Below, in pieces: positions 1 through 6,040 of a DNA stretch of 11,832 nucleotides. Source of the DNA: Candidatus Thorarchaeota archaeon SMTZ1-45 (GTDB taxonomy: Archaea; Asgardarchaeota; Thorarchaeia; Thorarchaeales; Thorarchaeaceae); the NCBI GenBank assembly GCA_001563335.1, contig LRSL01000027.1:1-11832 (forward strand), written 5' to 3'. How positions within the stretch are numbered: the stretch's first letter is position 1; each line of letters begins with the position of its first letter. A program made the translations under genes and the position numbers. The notes under the pieces were generated by a model that saw nothing but the letters and a program-made list of their open reading frames with translations, had not been told where the DNA came from and made no database searches.

Positions 1-768
1 CGTCGTATCAAAGATAAAACAATTCTAATCTCAATAGGGATGGCAAGTAATGAAATTGGTACGATTCAGCCAATCAATGAGATTGGGAAACTAGCTGCTG
101 AGAGAGGAATAGCATTTCATACAGATGCTGTAGCAGCTGAAGGTCTCGTTCCGATTGATGTGAAAAAAGATAACATCAATCTCATGGCCCTTTCATCGAA
201 TGATATCTATGGACCCCGCGGTGTGGGAGTCATGTATATGCAAAAAAGATTCAGAGTCAACCCAATTATTATCGGAGGAGGACAAGAGAAGGGTTTACGG
301 TCTGGAAGTGAAGACATACCTGGAATTGTGGGAATGAGTATTGCAGTAGAAATATTGCAGAAGGAAATGAATACTGAAGTCAAGCGATTCCTAGGTTATC
401 GAGATGGAATGATAAAACAAATCTTAGATGAGGTGCCAGATAGTCACCTCAATGGACATCCAATTGACAGACTCGCGTCCAATGCCCATTTTAGATTTGA
501 TGGTATCGAGGGTGAGTCTATTCTGCTCTCATTCAAAGATTTAGGAATCTCGGTGTCGACAGGATCAGCATGCACATCGAAAACGCTTGAGCCATCGCAT
601 ACACTGATAGCGACTGGACTTTTGCATGAAGAAGCGCATGGTTCGCTTCAACTAACAACAGGCAGATTCAACACAGATGAAGACATTGATATAGTACTTG
701 AAGCCGTGCCAAATGTGGTTTCACGACTAAGAGAACTATCTCCAATTTACAAAACCGAAGCAGGGTGA
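1..768 (+). CDS. iscS: IscS/NifS-family cysteine desulfurase homolog, 5'-truncated by the window edge; Lys-to-Asp (A. fulgidus-like) variant
   Basis: Frame is open from base 1 (RRIKDKTILISIGMASNEIGTIQP), so ATG 40 is internal. Family motifs: NEIGTIQP, HTDAV, YGPRGVG, GGGQEKGLRSGS, STGSACTS (Cys codon 571-573), LEPSH. The PLP-lysine site reads SSND instead of SxHK. iscU follows directly. Confidence 0.95.
   Translation, partial: RRIKDKTILISIGMASNEIGTIQPINEIGKLAAERGIAFHTDAVAAEGLVPIDVKKDNINLMALSSNDIYGPRGVGVMYMQKRFRVNPIIIGGGQEKGLRSGSEDIPGIVGMSIAVEILQKEMNTEVKRFLGYRDGMIKQILDEVPDSHLNGHPIDRLASNAHFRFDGIEGESILLSFKDLGISVSTGSACTSKTLEPSHTLIATGLLHEEAHGSLQLTTGRFNTDEDIDIVLEAVPNVVSRLRELSPIYKTEAG
763..768 (+). 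promoter_or_regulatory. Shine-Dalgarno GGGTGA for iscU, overlapping the iscS stop codon
   Basis: GGGTGA, a 6-nt spacer, then ATG 775. Same geometry as GGGTGA 2078-2083 before ATG 2090. Confidence 0.7.
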
Positions 769-774
769 TTGAAA

Positions 775-1554
775 ATGAAATCAACCAAATATAGCGAAAA
801 AGTTCTGGATCACTTCCGTAATCCAAGAAATGTAGGAACTCTTGAGGGAGAGGATGTTGCAGTAGGCAAGGTTGGAAATCCAACCTGTGGAGATATTATG
901 GAGGTCTATATTCGTATTGATGGCAATGTCATCACTGATGCTAAATTCAGGACCTTTGGGTGCGGTTCAGCAATCGCCACTACTAGTATGACAACTGAGA
1001 TGGTCAAGGGAATGACGCTTGATGAGGCAATGAAGTTAACACGTCAAGATGTTGCTGATGAATTGGACGGGTTACCACCAATCAAAATGCACTGCTCAAA
1101 CCTTGCAGCTGATGCTTTACACGAAGCAATCAAAAGCTATCGTAGAGGCAAAGGTGAAGAAGTTCCTGATGAAGATGAGAAGGTAAAAGATGAGATTAAG
1201 TGTCTTGTAGGAAAAGACGAATTTCTCGATAAAGGCGTATATCTCAATGTAGAAGATAGAAATGAGTTCAAAGATCTCAGAACGCTAGTACTCTATTCAG
1301 GTGATGAATCAGTAGAAATTGCAATAGAACTTACAGAGGTCACTGATAGAGTCATTCTTCTCACCCCGGATGAAACTGTTGTAATCAATCCAGAACTTGC
1401 AGAGAGACTAGCAAGTTCAAGTGTAAAGGTCCTGTATCAATCGAAACTTCTTGAGGTACGTGGAGAGTTTGAGGTAGAGAAGGTACTGATATTAAATATT
1501 GATGAAGACGAGGAGTATGAGCTCTTCGTTGATGCAGTTGTAATCATTGAGTAG
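775..1554 (+). CDS. iscU: IscU/NifU-N Fe-S scaffold fused to a C-terminal degenerate thioredoxin-reductase NADPH-binding-like domain
   Basis: YSEKVLDHFRNPRNVG, GNPTCGD, FRTFGCGSAIA and LPPIKMHCS supply the three Cys plus Asp and His of IscU. An acidic linker follows, then about 117 aa (1201-1551) that align by eye to the TrxB NADPH domain. ATG 775 is preferred over TTG 769 from SD spacing. Tandem TAG TAG stop. Confidence 0.93.
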   Translation: MKSTKYSEKVLDHFRNPRNVGTLEGEDVAVGKVGNPTCGDIMEVYIRIDGNVITDAKFRTFGCGSAIATTSMTTEMVKGMTLDEAMKLTRQDVADELDGLPPIKMHCSNLAADALHEAIKSYRRGKGEEVPDEDEKVKDEIKCLVGKDEFLDKGVYLNVEDRNEFKDLRTLVLYSGDESVEIAIELTEVTDRVILLTPDETVVINPELAERLASSSVKVLYQSKLLEVRGEFEVEKVLILNIDEDEEYELFVDAVVIIE

Positions 1555-1606: not shown

Positions 1607-2068
1607 ATGATAACCATCAGGACGACTACTTCATCTGATATTTCAGTACTGGAGGAATTATACAGGCAGCAAGTGGAAGATCACTCTGAACGTGCCAAGA
1701 AATTTGCTGAAGACTTGGTTCTGAGATACAAAACGCTTCTAGCTTTCAATGATGATTTAGTGTGTGGAACCATTTCATGGGAGTCTCGTGGCGGGCTCGA
1801 TGATGGGATTGTTGAGATAATAGGATTGGGAGTAAATGAAGAGTTCAAACGTCAGGGTATAGCAACAAAGTTAGTTAGCGCCATGATTGAGAGTGCAGTC
1901 CAATTCTATTCAAGTAATGGTTATTCATTGAGAGTGATTCTATTGTTCATGGAAAGTACAAATGAAGTTGCACGAGAGTTCTACTTAGCAAACAGATTCA
2001 ATGAGGTTAGTGTAATACCTTCACTATATCCACATGATGATGCATCTATCTTGATACGACATCTCTGA
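1607..2068 (+). CDS. GNAT family N-acetyltransferase (RimI-like)
   Basis: Acetyl-CoA motif A (LGVNEEFKRQGIATKL) and motif B (NEVAREFY). ATG 1607 gives a typical GNAT N-terminus (MITIRTTTSSD). TTG 1547 is the alternative start. Confidence 0.88.
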   Translation: MITIRTTTSSDISVLEELYRQQVEDHSERAKKFAEDLVLRYKTLLAFNDDLVCGTISWESRGGLDDGIVEIIGLGVNEEFKRQGIATKLVSAMIESAVQFYSSNGYSLRVILLFMESTNEVAREFYLANRFNEVSVIPSLYPHDDASILIRHL

Positions 2069-2089: not shown

Positions 2090-2776
2090 ATGTCTAAAGA
2101 ACCCATCATAGGAACCTTGCAAGAGGGATCCCTCCATTCTAGTCTAAAAGAGCTGTATTTGGATAGAAACGCCAAAGCGGAAGTATTGGTTGATGGATAC
2201 GTAGTTGATATTGTCAAAGATGGATTGTTAATAGAAATTCAAACAAGTAATTTTGCACAAATCAAGAACAAGTTACTCTCACTCTTTGCAAATCATCCAG
2301 TGAGGTTAGTACATCCATTATCCCAGAAAAAATGGATTGTGAAACAGTCACTAGATGGAACAGAACAATTGAGTCGTAGATTATCACCAAAGAAATGCGG
2401 TTTTGAAGATATATTCGATGAGCTAGTACGAATTCCTAGTTTAATTTCACATCCAAATTTCTCCCTGGAGTCAATATTAATAGAAGAAGAAGAGATTCGT
2501 CGTCAAGATGGGTTGGGAAGTTGGCGTAGGAGAGGTTGGAGTATAGTGGATAGAAGACTGGTCAATGTGATTGATAGGCGCGTGTATGAAAAACCCTCTG
2601 ACTTTCTCCATTTCATTCCAGACTCACTCGCAAGACCCTTTACTACCTCAGATTTAGTCGAAGCTTTAGGATTTTCAAAACAACTTGCTCAACGTCTTAC
2701 TTACTGCTTGAGAAAGATGAATGTTCTGAAAAAAGTAGGCAAATCGGGTAATGCAATTCTTCACGAAGTCGTCTGA
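2090..2776 (+). CDS. Hypothetical protein: PD-(D/E)xK-like nuclease fold (D...EIQ) with C-terminal winged HTH
   Basis: SLHSSLK, EVLVDGYVVD and LLIEIQT resemble a restriction-endonuclease-like core. The C-terminal FTTSDLVEALGFSKQLAQRLTYCLRKMNVLKKVGK is wHTH-like. SD GGGTGA at 2078-2083. Confidence 0.65.
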   Translation: MSKEPIIGTLQEGSLHSSLKELYLDRNAKAEVLVDGYVVDIVKDGLLIEIQTSNFAQIKNKLLSLFANHPVRLVHPLSQKKWIVKQSLDGTEQLSRRLSPKKCGFEDIFDELVRIPSLISHPNFSLESILIEEEEIRRQDGLGSWRRRGWSIVDRRLVNVIDRRVYEKPSDFLHFIPDSLARPFTTSDLVEALGFSKQLAQRLTYCLRKMNVLKKVGKSGNAILHEVV

Positions 2777-2788
2777 TTTGACCTATTG

Positions 2789-3877
2789 CTATTTACCTCT
2801 CAAGACATTTTGGATATCCTGAATGTATTCACTCCCAGGTGTTTCCCATCGGTTTGTCTTTTCACTGTAAAGATTATACGGATGAGAGTCCATACTCATC
2901 TTCGCATCATGGACTGTTTGTAAAAAGCATGATGTTAGATGAGAGCGAAGAACATCCAATCCTTTCAGAAAGCCAGACATGTCTTTGGCATTGAGAGAGA
3001 GTTGAATACCAAATCTTGTTCTTGATTCCATTGTTATGGTTGCAGGATATGGTAGTTTATAAAAAGCAGCGAGCGCTGGATTTTCTGGTCGGTCCAGCTC
3101 TATGAAACAAATGAGATTAAGTTCATTTTCTGTGGTGCAAACAGTCGATTTGTAGCCCTTGATGATCCCTTCATCTTCCAATCGATGAATCCGTTTATTC
3201 ACCAATGTTTCTGAAAGACCTAATATTTTTGCTAGTTTCTTCTGTGTTATCTCACCATCATCAAACATATGCTTCAAAATGAGGATATCATATTTGTCAA
3301 ATTCCGCAATCGACTGCACCTCTTCCAAGCGAATGTCGAATTTCTTCTTTGACCTAAGAATATCTTGAATCTGATCTTTCCACTTACTCCAATCCCAAAC
3401 CCATCCTAGTGCTGAGTTGAAATAGCTATAATCTGCAGACTTGTAATTAAAATCAGTGATGTCAAAGATGAAGAAGTCTGAAACCAGATCAGTCTTCTGC
3501 ATTTCTTCAAGAATCCGATGCGTTATCCTTGGAGAAGAGAGTGAATACAGTGAAAATGCGAGATAGCCATTGTAAGTCCCATAAGTTGGGCTGTTGAAAT
3601 ATATAGTATCAATCGCATGAAAAACATCAGGAAGGAACTTAATGCCTTTGGGGGTGGCATCCACAAGAAAAATATTCTCACCGAGACCCAATTTGCGTTC
3701 CAAGGTTAAAACACTGGTAGGACCCACAACACCAGTTTCTCTGAGCCTTTTCAAACGATATCTGACAGTCCTTGCGGGTATATTCAATAGATCACTTACT
3801 TCTTCGGTTGAAACCTTAGGACCAAGCTTATCTATGGCGCCGATAATTTCTACATCCTTCGGGTCTATTCGCGACGT
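2789..3877 (-). CDS. Tandem (two-HTH) Lrp/AsnC-like transcriptional regulator; start extended to an ACG codon
   Basis: HTH1 is IDPKDVEIIGAIDKLGPKVSTEEVSDLLNIPARTVRYRLKRLRE, largely upstream of the tracked TTG 3787 and in frame. HTH2 is DKYDILILKHMFDDGEITQKKLAKILGLSETLVNKRIHRLEDEGIIKGY. GGTGA SD at 3888-3884. Confidence 0.82.
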   Translation of the reverse strand, partial: TSRIDPKDVEIIGAIDKLGPKVSTEEVSDLLNIPARTVRYRLKRLRETGVVGPTSVLTLERKLGLGENIFLVDATPKGIKFLPDVFHAIDTIYFNSPTYGTYNGYLAFSLYSLSSPRITHRILEEMQKTDLVSDFFIFDITDFNYKSADYSYFNSALGWVWDWSKWKDQIQDILRSKKKFDIRLEEVQSIAEFDKYDILILKHMFDDGEITQKKLAKILGLSETLVNKRIHRLEDEGIIKGYKSTVCTTENELNLICFIELDRPENPALAAFYKLPYPATITMESRTRFGIQLSLNAKDMSGFLKGLDVLRSHLTSCFLQTVHDAKMSMDSHPYNLYSEKTNRWETPGSEYIQDIQNVLRGK

Positions 3878-4282: not shown

Positions 4283-4645
4283 TCAAACCTCAGAAAAGTC
4301 AGTATTGATAGAAAAGCAATTCTTCAGTACAGCATGCATGACCACACCTCGAGCATCATCCGTATCAGGGAGACCACTTATGAGCTCCTCACAGATTCGA
4401 ATTGTTGGGAGTCCAAGGGGGGCTGGAATTTCACATCCATCATCAATATCACTCATTACATCCACTTGACGGATCACTGATGGTGAAAGGCCAAAGTCAG
4501 AAATGACGTTATACATGAGTTCCAGAGCGGCATTGCAAAGAACGCATTGTTCACTAGAGTAGATAATGATGCAGCTGCATCTTCCACACTCCGTCTTCTT
4601 AGTTTCACGTCGTTGTTGTGTTGTTGTGTTGTATGCTACTGTCAT
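4283..4645 (-). CDS. Thioredoxin/glutaredoxin-fold protein
   Basis: Beta-strand IIIYSS followed by CVLC and a helix, then RQVDV and a cis-Pro-like GLPTIRI. Extra N-terminal CGRCSC. Start is ATG 4645 or TTG 4651. Confidence 0.65.
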   Translation of the reverse strand: MTVAYNTTTQQRRETKKTECGRCSCIIIYSSEQCVLCNAALELMYNVISDFGLSPSVIRQVDVMSDIDDGCEIPAPLGLPTIRICEELISGLPDTDDARGVVMHAVLKNCFSINTDFSEV

Positions 4646-4765
4646 CTCCAATCAGACGAAAATTAGCAAAATCTGAATATAACCAGTCTGAGTAAAATCA
4701 CCATGTGTAGAATGCGTCAAAACGCCTGATAGCTTGATTCTAGAGGGTTGTGCTTTTCTATTCAG

Positions 4766-4864: not shown

Positions 4865-6040
4865 TTACATTGCATCAAGGCTATACATCAAGTCATCCAA
4901 GAGATCTTCAGGGTCTTCGATTCCTATTGACAATCGTACTGTAGAGCTGGATATGTCCATCTCATTGAGGGCTCGCTCGTCAATACCATAGTGTGTCGAT
5001 AATGCGGGAATACTTGCCAAGCTCTCAACCCCACCAAGTGAGACAGCATTTAGGAAGACTTCGAGTGAGTCCACAAACTTGCTTGTGCCAGCCAAATCAG
5101 ACTCAAGTTCAATAGAGAGCATGCCTCCAAATCCGGACATCTGTTTTCGTGCAATATCATGATGCGGATGACTTGAGAGACCTGGATAGTGAACTTTTCT
5201 GATTCGCGGGTTTCGGGACAACTTTTCAGCAAGATAACTTGCATTCGAATTGTGTTTCTCCATCCTAACACCAAGAGTTTTGATACCTCGATCTAAAAGG
5301 AAGGAGGCAAATGGGTCCATAGTTCCCCCAAGAAGCTTCGCAGCTCCTCGCACATCAGCCATCAAATCTTTTGGACCCGAGATAGTCCCAGCGATTATGT
5401 CACTGTGACCACCAAGATATTTCGTTGCGCTATGCATAACTAGGTCCACACCCAATTCATGAGGTTTCTGATTGATAGGTGAACCAAAGGTGCTGTCAAT
5501 CATGCTAATGGTCCCTTTAGCACGCGCTGCGTCAGCTACTTTTTTGATATCGACAATCTTCAAGGTTGGATTGGTTGGGGTTTCGAAGAAGCAGAGTTTG
5601 TAGGCTGTTCCAGAATCTAAGAGTCGATTAGCTAGTTCATCAGTATCGACATAATCAACCTCGATGCAACTTTGTGAGAGTATCTTATTGAAGAGATGAA
5701 CAGTTCCACCATAAATCGAGTCACTAGAGAGGATTGTTTCCCCATTTTTTACTAAACCGATTATTGCTGAAGAAATGGCAGCCATCCCTGAGGCTAGAAC
5801 ATGAGTGTCTTCAGTACCTTCAAGAGCATTCATTTTTTCCTCCACATTCTTTGTAGTGGGATTGCTCCAACGTGTGTAGACATCCTTTCCTGTCTTCCCT
5901 TGCACCGAATCAAGCATCTGCTGCTGGTCTTCAAATACAAAGGTGGAAGTCTGCATTATTGGCACCACTGCTGGTCCAGACGTCTGTGTGTGTTCACCTT
6001 GAACACAAAGAGTGGATGGTTTTCTCTTTCTAGTGGTCAT
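4865..6040 (-). CDS. Cys/Met metabolism PLP-dependent enzyme (cystathionine gamma-synthase/lyase family)
   Basis: PIMQTSTF, YTRWSNPT, ASGMAAI, IYGGT, ETPTNP, HSATKYLGGHSD (PLP Lys intact), AVSLGGVESL, RLSIGIED. YGGT rather than YGCT argues against a classical methionine gamma-lyase. GGGGTG SD upstream. Confidence 0.93.
   Translation of the reverse strand: MTTRKRKPSTLCVQGEHTQTSGPAVVPIMQTSTFVFEDQQQMLDSVQGKTGKDVYTRWSNPTTKNVEEKMNALEGTEDTHVLASGMAAISSAIIGLVKNGETILSSDSIYGGTVHLFNKILSQSCIEVDYVDTDELANRLLDSGTAYKLCFFETPTNPTLKIVDIKKVADAARAKGTISMIDSTFGSPINQKPHELGVDLVMHSATKYLGGHSDIIAGTISGPKDLMADVRGAAKLLGGTMDPFASFLLDRGIKTLGVRMEKHNSNASYLAEKLSRNPRIRKVHYPGLSSHPHHDIARKQMSGFGGMLSIELESDLAGTSKFVDSLEVFLNAVSLGGVESLASIPALSTHYGIDERALNEMDISSSTVRLSIGIEDPEDLLDDLMYSLDAM

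Follow-up and report, generated by a model that had tools for sequence, protein, structure and literature searches.

The closest described relatives of the system analysed here are the minimal archaeal IscS-IscU pairs (MIS-type), exemplified by Archaeoglobus fulgidus IscS2-IscU (structures 4eb5, 4eb7 and 4hvk; D199K variant, 4r5f), in which adjacent iscS and iscU genes encode a single-domain IscU and an IscS that keeps its Cys loop and has Asp in place of the Lys that binds pyridoxal phosphate (PLP). According to the sections of PMC8918507 at hand, A. fulgidus IscS, with Asp199 at this position, has no desulfurase activity and may only donate a Cys ligand to a [2Fe-2S] cluster held together with IscU, and sulfide has been proposed as the sulfur source of such a system. 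In the portions of that review and of PMC13066941 that were available, the sulfur and electron sources of minimal pairs, and the cohesion of a complex built on an inactive IscS, figure as an open question. Here, we analysed an iscU gene on the whole 11.8-kb contig LRSL01000027.1 (11,832 nucleotides; hereafter, the window) of the 3.5-Mb Asgard (Thorarchaeota-type) assembly of Candidatus Thorarchaeota archaeon SMTZ1-45, which has a completeness of 87.7%. Compared with the single-domain A. fulgidus IscU, its product carries 134 extra residues, consisting of a linker and a relic NAD(P)H domain. We interpret the protein, with a probability of roughly 60%, as the scaffold of a minimal Archaeoglobus-type IscS-IscU pair with a C-terminal pseudo-enzyme NAD(P)H domain, a relic that docks on IscS. 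The A. fulgidus-type pair is the known part of this system, and the added domain, as a modelled docking module, would be the new one; full-text literature searches, including PMC13066941, PMC8918507 and PMC7585200, yielded no published description of either the short fusion or its full-length counterpart, with most subscription journals and supplements outside their coverage.

The window shares the adjacent iscS-iscU layout of the A. fulgidus system, the iscS stop codon (TGA, 766-768) lying 7 nt ahead of the iscU ATG. Relatives of the fusion begin at the equivalent of this ATG (775), which gives a protein of 259 amino acids (aa); a TTG at 769 would add two residues. Residues 1-125 are identified by homology as a complete IscU scaffold with a predicted role in cluster assembly and transfer: Pfam NifU_N (PF01592) spans residues 7-127 (E 6.9e-49; 165.7 bits against a cut-off of 22), TIGR03419 scores 192.1 bits, exceeding its cut-off of 187.9, and Foldseek matches the domain to the IscU structures 7c8m, 7cnv and 4eb5_C at 58-63% identity (54-58% for A. 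fulgidus 4eb5_C and 4eb7_C). The cluster ligands Cys38, Cys63 and Cys107, together with Asp40 and His106, are present here and invariant in 111/111 full-length relatives, and the LPPIK motif is also present. No other NifU_N match occurs in the assembly. Three-domain NifU (IscU-like, ferredoxin-like and Nfu) likewise has further modules attached to an IscU-like N-terminal part, but the window protein lacks both the ferredoxin-like and the Nfu domain: TIGR02000 aligns over residues 5-145 only and scores 152.3 bits, below its cut-off of 273.3. The linker that follows is acidic (net charge -4) and is modelled as disordered, with AlphaFold predicted local distance difference test (pLDDT) values below 50 for residues 132-143.

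Residues 143-259 are the NAD(P)H domain of a low-molecular-weight thioredoxin reductase (TrxR)-like flavoprotein of the ferredoxin-NADP reductase (FNR) type, without the flavin adenine dinucleotide (FAD) domain or the catalytic motifs. Family profiles recognise it below their thresholds: Pfam gives only a sub-threshold Pyr_redox match (E 1.3e-3; 19.7 bits, cut-off 22), Pyr_redox_2 (PF07992) reaches 12.4 against a cut-off of 26.1, and NCBIfam TIGR01292 aligns residues 145-257 with positions 118-232 of its 300 at E 4.4e-12, scoring 45.4 against a curated cut-off of 343. A phmmer search of the tail against PDB sequences returned thioredoxin reductases and TrxR-like FNRs, the best being 2zbw_A (E 2.7e-6), where the colinear match covers residues 131-247, that is, the NADPH domain, and ends at its boundaries. 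Structural comparison gave the same answer, with Foldseek pairing the AlphaFold model with 2zbw_B (E 3.7e-11, root-mean-square deviation [rmsd] 1.5 A, 120 columns). Modelled alone, the domain has a pLDDT of 87.8 and a predicted TM-score (pTM) of 0.82, and VIA-align of this isolated domain matched it to residues 134-246 of Bacillus subtilis FNR (3lzw_A; Z 16.8, rmsd 2.1 A, 113 aligned) and to 3f8d_A (Z 16.6), the top ten rows all being NADPH domains of TrxR, FNR or AhpF. Overall, TrxR-like FNRs (B. subtilis YumC 3lzw, B. cereus FNR2 6gas, T. thermophilus 2zbw) and low-molecular-weight TrxRs (3f8d, 7p9e) share the fold of the relic at Z 16.8 to 14.7, rmsd 2.0-2.8 A and 22-28% identity over 110-114 residues.

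The motif columns of a 45-row alignment show how far the domain has departed from these enzymes: CATC is replaced by LNVE, GGGNSA/GGGDSA by YSGDES and HRR by TPD, and over 111 relatives the latter two states read [HY]SGDES and TP[DE]. Unlike FNR and TrxR, the relic is fused to IscU and has no intact Gly-rich loop, no HRR and no FAD domain (N-terminal GxGxxG and C-terminal GD motif), since IscU and the linker directly precede it and the open reading frame (ORF) stops at its end. Its 117 residues carry a net charge of -18 (pI 4.14). A domain that lacks the FAD domain, the intact Gly-rich loop and HRR would be no oxidoreductase on its own. The sequence-only reading of this DNA had described a complete IscU, an acidic linker and a very acidic, colinear match to the TrxR NADPH domain that stops at the domain boundary without an FAD domain, and all of this is borne out. 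Its list of lost motifs gave the correct states as well, with one amendment: like the relic, the FNR type has no CxxC, and since this motif is already missing from the nearest relatives, its absence does not date from the origin of the short form.

These nearest relatives are complete IscU-flavoprotein fusions. An exhaustive search of 1.84 billion representative proteins gave 99 matches, among them P0159 (443 aa), in which IscU is followed by a complete Pyr_redox_2 flavoprotein. With P0159 as the query, about 115 of the 120 matches listed (manual count) carry both PF01592 and PF07992 in 433-454 aa, and the names among these matches are Methanoperedens, Methanosarcinales/ANME-2 (anaerobic methanotrophic archaea, group 2) and Jordarchaeaceae; within the set of 400 Asgard genomes, all members of one family (6/6) have the full-length form and no other genome does. 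The uncharacterised fusions of Methanoperedens, ANME-2 and Jordarchaeia (438-454 aa), annotated as 'NifU', 'IscU 2' or 'thioredoxin reductase', have the same N-terminal IscU, the same NAD(P)H-domain lineage (98/92) and the residues R169, K218, E235 and E244, which mark the entire fused clade, and at Methanoperedens loci IscS lies directly upstream, as in the window. They differ in keeping both FAD-domain halves (GGGPAG and the C-terminal GD motif), of which the window protein has neither. CxxC is absent from their alignment rows, which assigns them to the FNR type. The NAD(P)H site is intact in Methanoperedens (GGGNSA and HRK/HRR) and degenerate in Jordarchaeia (GNGEQA and YKEKD) and ANME-2 (GKGYNA and TGDES), both of which keep the FAD motifs. 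From Methanoperedens through the Jordarchaeial and ANME-2 fusions to the short forms, the net charge is about -1, then -8 to -9, then -8 to -16, against -18 in the window, whose domain is much more acidic than those of the complete fusions (about -1 to -9).

In a maximum-likelihood tree of the reductase domain (45 domains, 119 columns), 19/19 short-form domains form one clade on a long stem (100/100), nested in a 34-row clade (98/92) that holds every IscU-fused form together with two Methanoperedens stand-alone entries; the outgroup comprises CxxC reductases (100/99), including the canonical TrxR of the window genome itself (CATC, GGGNTA, HRRD). In a tree of the IscU domain, 13/13 short forms are again one clade (96/93). 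On these phylogenetic grounds, we conclude that the short form arose once, from a complete IscU-flavoprotein fusion through loss of both FAD-domain halves. The tail had been read from the sequence as an excised pseudo-enzyme domain; its catalytic stripping is evident, and it is better described as what remained after an older full-length fusion lost the two halves of its FAD domain.

Several observations concern the flavoprotein part of the full-length forms. In one Jordarchaeial fusion (L043, G119:C208), an in-frame TAG falls precisely at the border of the IscU and flavoprotein parts, either a natural split or an error, and the Methanoperedens 'stand-alone' reductases P0308 and P0309 likewise start inside the linker. 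Behind the fusion, all six Jordarchaeial loci (L040-L045, genomes G117-G122) share a conserved reading frame of about 213 aa that bears FHGHICPG and a C-terminal CxxC and looks FmdE-like. A free-standing TrxR-like protein was considered as a universal companion of the short form and rejected, as separate FNR-like genes, which share 41-47% identity with the flavoprotein part of the Jordarchaeial fusions, are confined to some members of the family; in the window genome, the same search found no such gene.

The short form is widespread. The tail alone matches 330 proteins at E<=1e-3 in a collection of 5.8 billion, and most of the best 120 of the 330 are 259 aa long and bear NifU/IscU names from Thorarchaeota or Sifarchaeia. 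When one genome per species was scanned with a single protein query, which retrieves close relatives only, 37 loci were obtained, labelled as 29 Thorarchaeota, 3 Promethearchaeota, 1 Hermodarchaeota, 3 'uncultured archaeon' and 1 Syntrophus. In a profile search of the 400 Asgard genomes, the relic domain was found at E<=1e-12 in 240. About 208 of them, in nine families (manual row count), have strong matches (E<=1e-24) whose open frames measure 257-302 aa, that is, the short fusion: 72/85 in the window's own family plus the window genome, 115/135 in the largest family, and the rest in seven smaller ones; the weaker matches among the 240 are ordinary TrxR-like genes or full-length fusions. The short form in the genome titled 'uncultured Syntrophus sp.' (L038; relic 47% identical) bears a bacterial label, and its IscU clusters with other non-Thor short forms.

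The same frame recurs in independent assemblies, so the fusion is no assembly artefact, and the worry attached to the sequence-only reading, that it might be confined to this assembly, is dispelled. The relic might still be a functionless leftover, and the loss of all its catalytic motifs and its failure to pass any family threshold fit that idea. Among 24 Thor-type genes, however, the ratio of nonsynonymous to synonymous substitution rates (dN/dS) is 0.087 for the relic, against 0.027 for IscU and 0.55 for the linker, values that are rough because dS is near saturation (1.4-1.8); the relic is, by these estimates, under purifying selection. Moreover, R192, Y248 and L250 are among the residues that are invariant in 19/19 short forms and differ in the full-length and free relatives, S179 and T197 are short-form-specific in 18/19, and several invariant residues persist across clades that share only 35-50% identity. 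Such conservation under purifying selection points to a domain that has been reused rather than one in decay. With a frame of 257-302 aa in about 208/400 Asgard genomes, and again in the genomes of 37 species that were assembled independently, a functionless tail or a chimera of assembly or annotation is scarcely credible.

The upstream IscS of the window reads SSND at nt 193-204, with Asp replacing the PLP-binding Lys, and its Cys loop (GSACTS, nt 562-579) is retained; NCBIfam NifS/IscS models match it below their cut-offs. A full-length homologue from a related locus (L003), 90% identical to the window's protein, has 4eb5_A as its best match (E 2e-132), with SSND aligned to SSND, a site that reads SSNK in the D199K variant 4r5f. 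Among the upstream IscS ORFs recognised beside short forms, SSND is found in 28/28. Judged by these residues, the upstream IscS is of the A. fulgidus IscS2 type and inactive. As in that system, no desulfurase activity would be expected and sulfide would be the likely sulfur source, in line with the part of PMC8918507 available. IscS lies directly upstream of the fusion in 28/37 loci, and five further contigs end too close upstream to tell. The full-length loci of Methanoperedens also read SSND in 3/3 readable sites, among 8 loci with IscS directly upstream, as does the single Jordarchaeial IscS seen (L044). Unfused Asgard IscU, on the other hand, adjoin IscS reading SSHK (one case) or SANS (two cases). 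The SANS proteins, encoded beside unfused IscU in small Asgard genomes of 1.3-1.4 Mb (L151 and L152, in G304 and G302), represent a second lysine-less kind of IscS.

Modelling of an IscS dimer with the relic domain, using the cognate pair of L003 (90% and 88% identical to the window proteins), predicts that the relic binds IscS. The interaction prediction score from aligned errors (ipSAE) was 0.75 (runs 0.77, 0.75 and 0.72) against 0.01 for the best control; the mark used for comparison was reached by 58/80 solved complexes and 2/110 mismatched pairs, a calibration that is only rough for a model with custom alignments and three chains. At least 92% of contacts are common to the runs, and the pLDDT of the partner is 90 or more. 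No solved complex of this kind is known to us, which makes it unlikely that the model merely reproduced one from its training. On the relic, the predicted contacts are D167, R169, D191, R192, E231, F232, E235, K236, Y248 and L250-D253, which are largely the residues identified as invariant before modelling. On IscS, they are 97, 118, 121, 123-124, 132, 135-136 and 337-343 (the helix after the Cys loop). Of these, E97, K132 and R136 are invariant in 30/30 IscS encoded beside short forms, while the same positions read S, Q/K/R and A beside full-length Methanoperedens fusions (n=7) and N, L and A beside unfused IscU (n=2). Compared with A. fulgidus, positions 97, 132, 135, 136 and 342 change from A, F, Q, K and K to E, K, R, R and L/I/M in the partners of short forms. 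This pattern on the IscS side fits co-adaptation. The sequence-only reading had proposed a docking module and a thioredoxin- or glutaredoxin-fold partner; the complex model and its controls back docking, and they point to IscS as the partner instead.

The same residues bear on the question of whether the relic still binds a nucleotide such as NAD(H) or ADP and, as a sensor of metabolic or redox state, adjusts cluster assembly. The model confidence of its Rossmann beta-alpha-beta core is high, two residues of the former Gly-rich loop (Gly176 and Asp177) are invariant, and an acidic residue (D/E199) follows the second strand, as is typical of folds that bind NAD and not NADP. In this loop, nevertheless, the first Gly has become His or Tyr and the second Ser, the HRR site for the 2'-phosphate reads TP[DE], the profile scores fall under the family cut-offs, and the invariants specific to short forms lie in the predicted IscS interface rather than around the loop. 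We therefore consider such a sensor unlikely.

A different role might centre on Cys143, at the junction of linker and relic, as an extra cluster or sulfur ligand that the domain mainly serves to position, so that it caps or hands over the cluster when IscU leaves IscS. This residue is Cys in 110/111 full-length relatives and in 34/34 Thor-type loci despite the fast-evolving linker. In the A. fulgidus complex, the fourth cluster ligand comes from IscS, as described in the accessible part of PMC8918507, which would leave free IscU one ligand short. Against this, several distant short forms (P0123, P0366, P0128, P0368 and P0134) have no linker Cys, nor do the full-length fusions, and in the models the residue has low confidence and lies outside the predicted interface. 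A ligand role for Cys143 is possible and could coexist with docking; as the main purpose of the domain, it is rather improbable.

Docking of the relic on IscS, our preferred explanation, has to be weighed against several contrary points. The binding rests on model confidence, and the alignments that bear the conservation also feed the model. The 30 IscS partners of short forms are kin and provide no independent statistic, so phylogeny confounds their comparison with other IscS. The full-length AlphaFold model of the fusion (pTM 0.51) gives the domains no fixed mutual arrangement, and docking in the intact protein would require the 17-residue linker to reach from the IscU site to the predicted patch and the docked relic to leave room for bound IscU. 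The gene pair is not universal: IscS lies about 2.4 kb away in 2/37 loci (L021 and L025), is absent despite sufficient upstream flank in another 2/37 (L022 and L028), and is adjacent to the fusion in 0/6 Jordarchaeial loci (about 730 nt upstream in L044). As for the origin, the placement of ANME-2 as sister of the short forms has weak support (82/63), and in the IscU tree the short, full-length and unfused forms, including four unfused sequences, make a polytomy. A history in which FAD-domain loss followed IscS inactivation was rejected, since full-length fusions also lie beside SSND-type IscS. Finally, residual NAD(H) or ADP binding by the relic keeps the small probability given above.

With these points in mind, the following course of events would account for the data. 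In the ancestor, a flavin reductase would have been joined to IscU, presumably to move electrons to or from the nascent cluster; a parallel is offered by the central [2Fe-2S] domain of NifU, which has been proposed as an electron supplier in the portion of PMC13066941 consulted. The nucleotide site would have decayed first, as suggested by the Jordarchaeial and ANME-2 fusions, which keep the FAD domain beside a degenerate NAD(P)H site. Both FAD-domain halves would have been lost next, and the remaining acidic domain retained as a structural module. In a whole reductase, the last strand of this domain leads back to the FAD domain, so the surface bared by the deletion may be the new interface. 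There, the relic is predicted to dock on IscS next to the helix after the Cys loop, with Y248, L250, F251, D253, R169 and R192 in contact and the acidic E231 and E235 facing K132, R135 and R136 of IscS. IscU would then grip IscS at two points through a flexible tether of about 17 residues, and this two-point grip would stabilise an (IscS-IscU)2 complex in which the inactive IscS is thought to give only a Cys ligand and sulfide to be the sulfur source.

The remaining features of the window (Table 1) include a candidate for the partner named in the sequence-only reading, according to which the relic recruits a thioredoxin/glutaredoxin (Trx/Grx)-fold protein to the scaffold. A Grx/Trx-like CxxC protein of 122 aa, which has no match among Pfam and NCBIfam profiles, is encoded 2.7 kb away; its protein-atlas leads reach 0.91, a homologue is present in 17/37 related loci, and in other systems IscU passes clusters on to monothiol glutaredoxins. 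The gene is, however, on the opposite strand and absent from 20/37 loci, and the ancestors of the domain are CxxC-less FNR-type proteins and whole IscU fusions, neither of which is known to bind thioredoxin. The argument that this domain contacts thioredoxin in TrxR does not carry over, because the ancestor was no thioredoxin-reducing TrxR. Having descended from a CxxC-less FNR-like branch through complete IscU-flavoprotein fusions, the relic lends the proposed recruitment no support, and we regard it as very unlikely.

The longest ORF of the Gcn5-related N-acetyltransferase (GNAT) gene starts at TTG 1547, overlapping the iscU stop, and a homologue lies just 3' of the fusion in 31/37 related loci. 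The GNAT gene is probably in the same operon as the fusion, and its position close behind it, here and in relatives, suggests a conserved operon partner of unassigned role. The gene for a PLP enzyme of Cys/Met metabolism, also near the operon, is syntenic in closer relatives (10/37). Methionine gamma-lyase and cystathionine gamma-synthase family enzymes can release sulfide, and this one would be a candidate supplier of sulfur where IscS is inactive.

Table 1. Coordinates of the genes, domains and motifs discussed, numbered along the window
Feature	Position	Strand	Description
iscS, 3' part	1..768	+	255 codons; contig begins within gene; Pfam Aminotran_5 E 3.1e-33
Fused iscU ORF	775 (ATG)-1554	+	259 aa; longer start, TTG at 769
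IscU scaffold domain, residues 1-125	775..1149	+	NifU_N E 6.9e-49
Acidic, variable, disordered linker, residues 126-142	1150..1200	+	Net charge -4
Cys143, linker/domain junction	1201..1203	+	Conserved cysteine
Relic NAD(P)H domain, residues 143-259	1201..1551	+	TrxR-like flavoprotein by homology and fold
LNVE (CxxC position of TrxR)	1243-1254	+	Aligned motif columns
YSGDES (GGGDSA position)	1294-1311	+	Aligned motif columns
TPD (HRR position)	1363-1371	+	Aligned motif columns
Acidic hairpin and last strand of relic, with Y248, L250, F251 and D253	1495-1533	+	Sequence coordinates
GNAT acetyltransferase gene	1607..2068	+	Likely start ATG 1607; Acetyltransf_1 E 9.7e-10; weak rimI match, E 1.4e-7
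228-aa protein without family match	2090-2776	+	Syntenic with the operon in roughly 20/37 loci
332-aa double helix-turn-helix (AsnC/Lrp-like) regulator	2789-3787	-	Syntenic with the operon in roughly 20/37 loci
122-aa CxxC protein, Grx/Trx-like	4283-4651	-	Protein-atlas Thioredoxin_3/Glutaredoxin cluster leads 0.91; structure TM-score about 0.6
Cys/Met-metabolism PLP enzyme (methionine gamma-lyase/cystathionine gamma-synthase family)	4865-6040	-	E 2.6e-124

The weight of the fusion in a given genome depends on what other scaffolds accompany it. A search for the SufB/D core (PF01458), positive in 14/14 reference genomes used as controls, found none in the window genome, whose 87.7% completeness means that absence from the genome itself is not established. 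SufB/D was detected in 34/86 genomes of the window's family and in 14/23 of its high-quality ones. Consequently, the fusion may be the only scaffold in a good part of the family, perhaps here as well, and the relic sits on the only recognisable Fe-S scaffold of this assembly.

We also suggest a bolder account, which we hold to be plausible yet clearly short of an even chance. The full-length fusions would represent a self-contained ancestral Fe-S machine that reveals its electron partner, and in Thor-, Loki- and related lineages the reductase would have become a pure clamp that locks IscU on a dead IscS, giving a permanent two-protein scaffold that uses free sulfide. Genomes like this one, with no SufB/D found, would then depend on it for all Fe-S biogenesis. 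More generally, the complete fusions of IscU with a flavoprotein suggest that a flavin reductase is built into the scaffold as its electron partner, and the relic may be a clear example from nature of an enzyme domain that took on a docking role, with a specific, mutable predicted interface. Since the short form is common in Asgard archaea, these findings bear on Fe-S biology in the archaea most closely related to eukaryotes.

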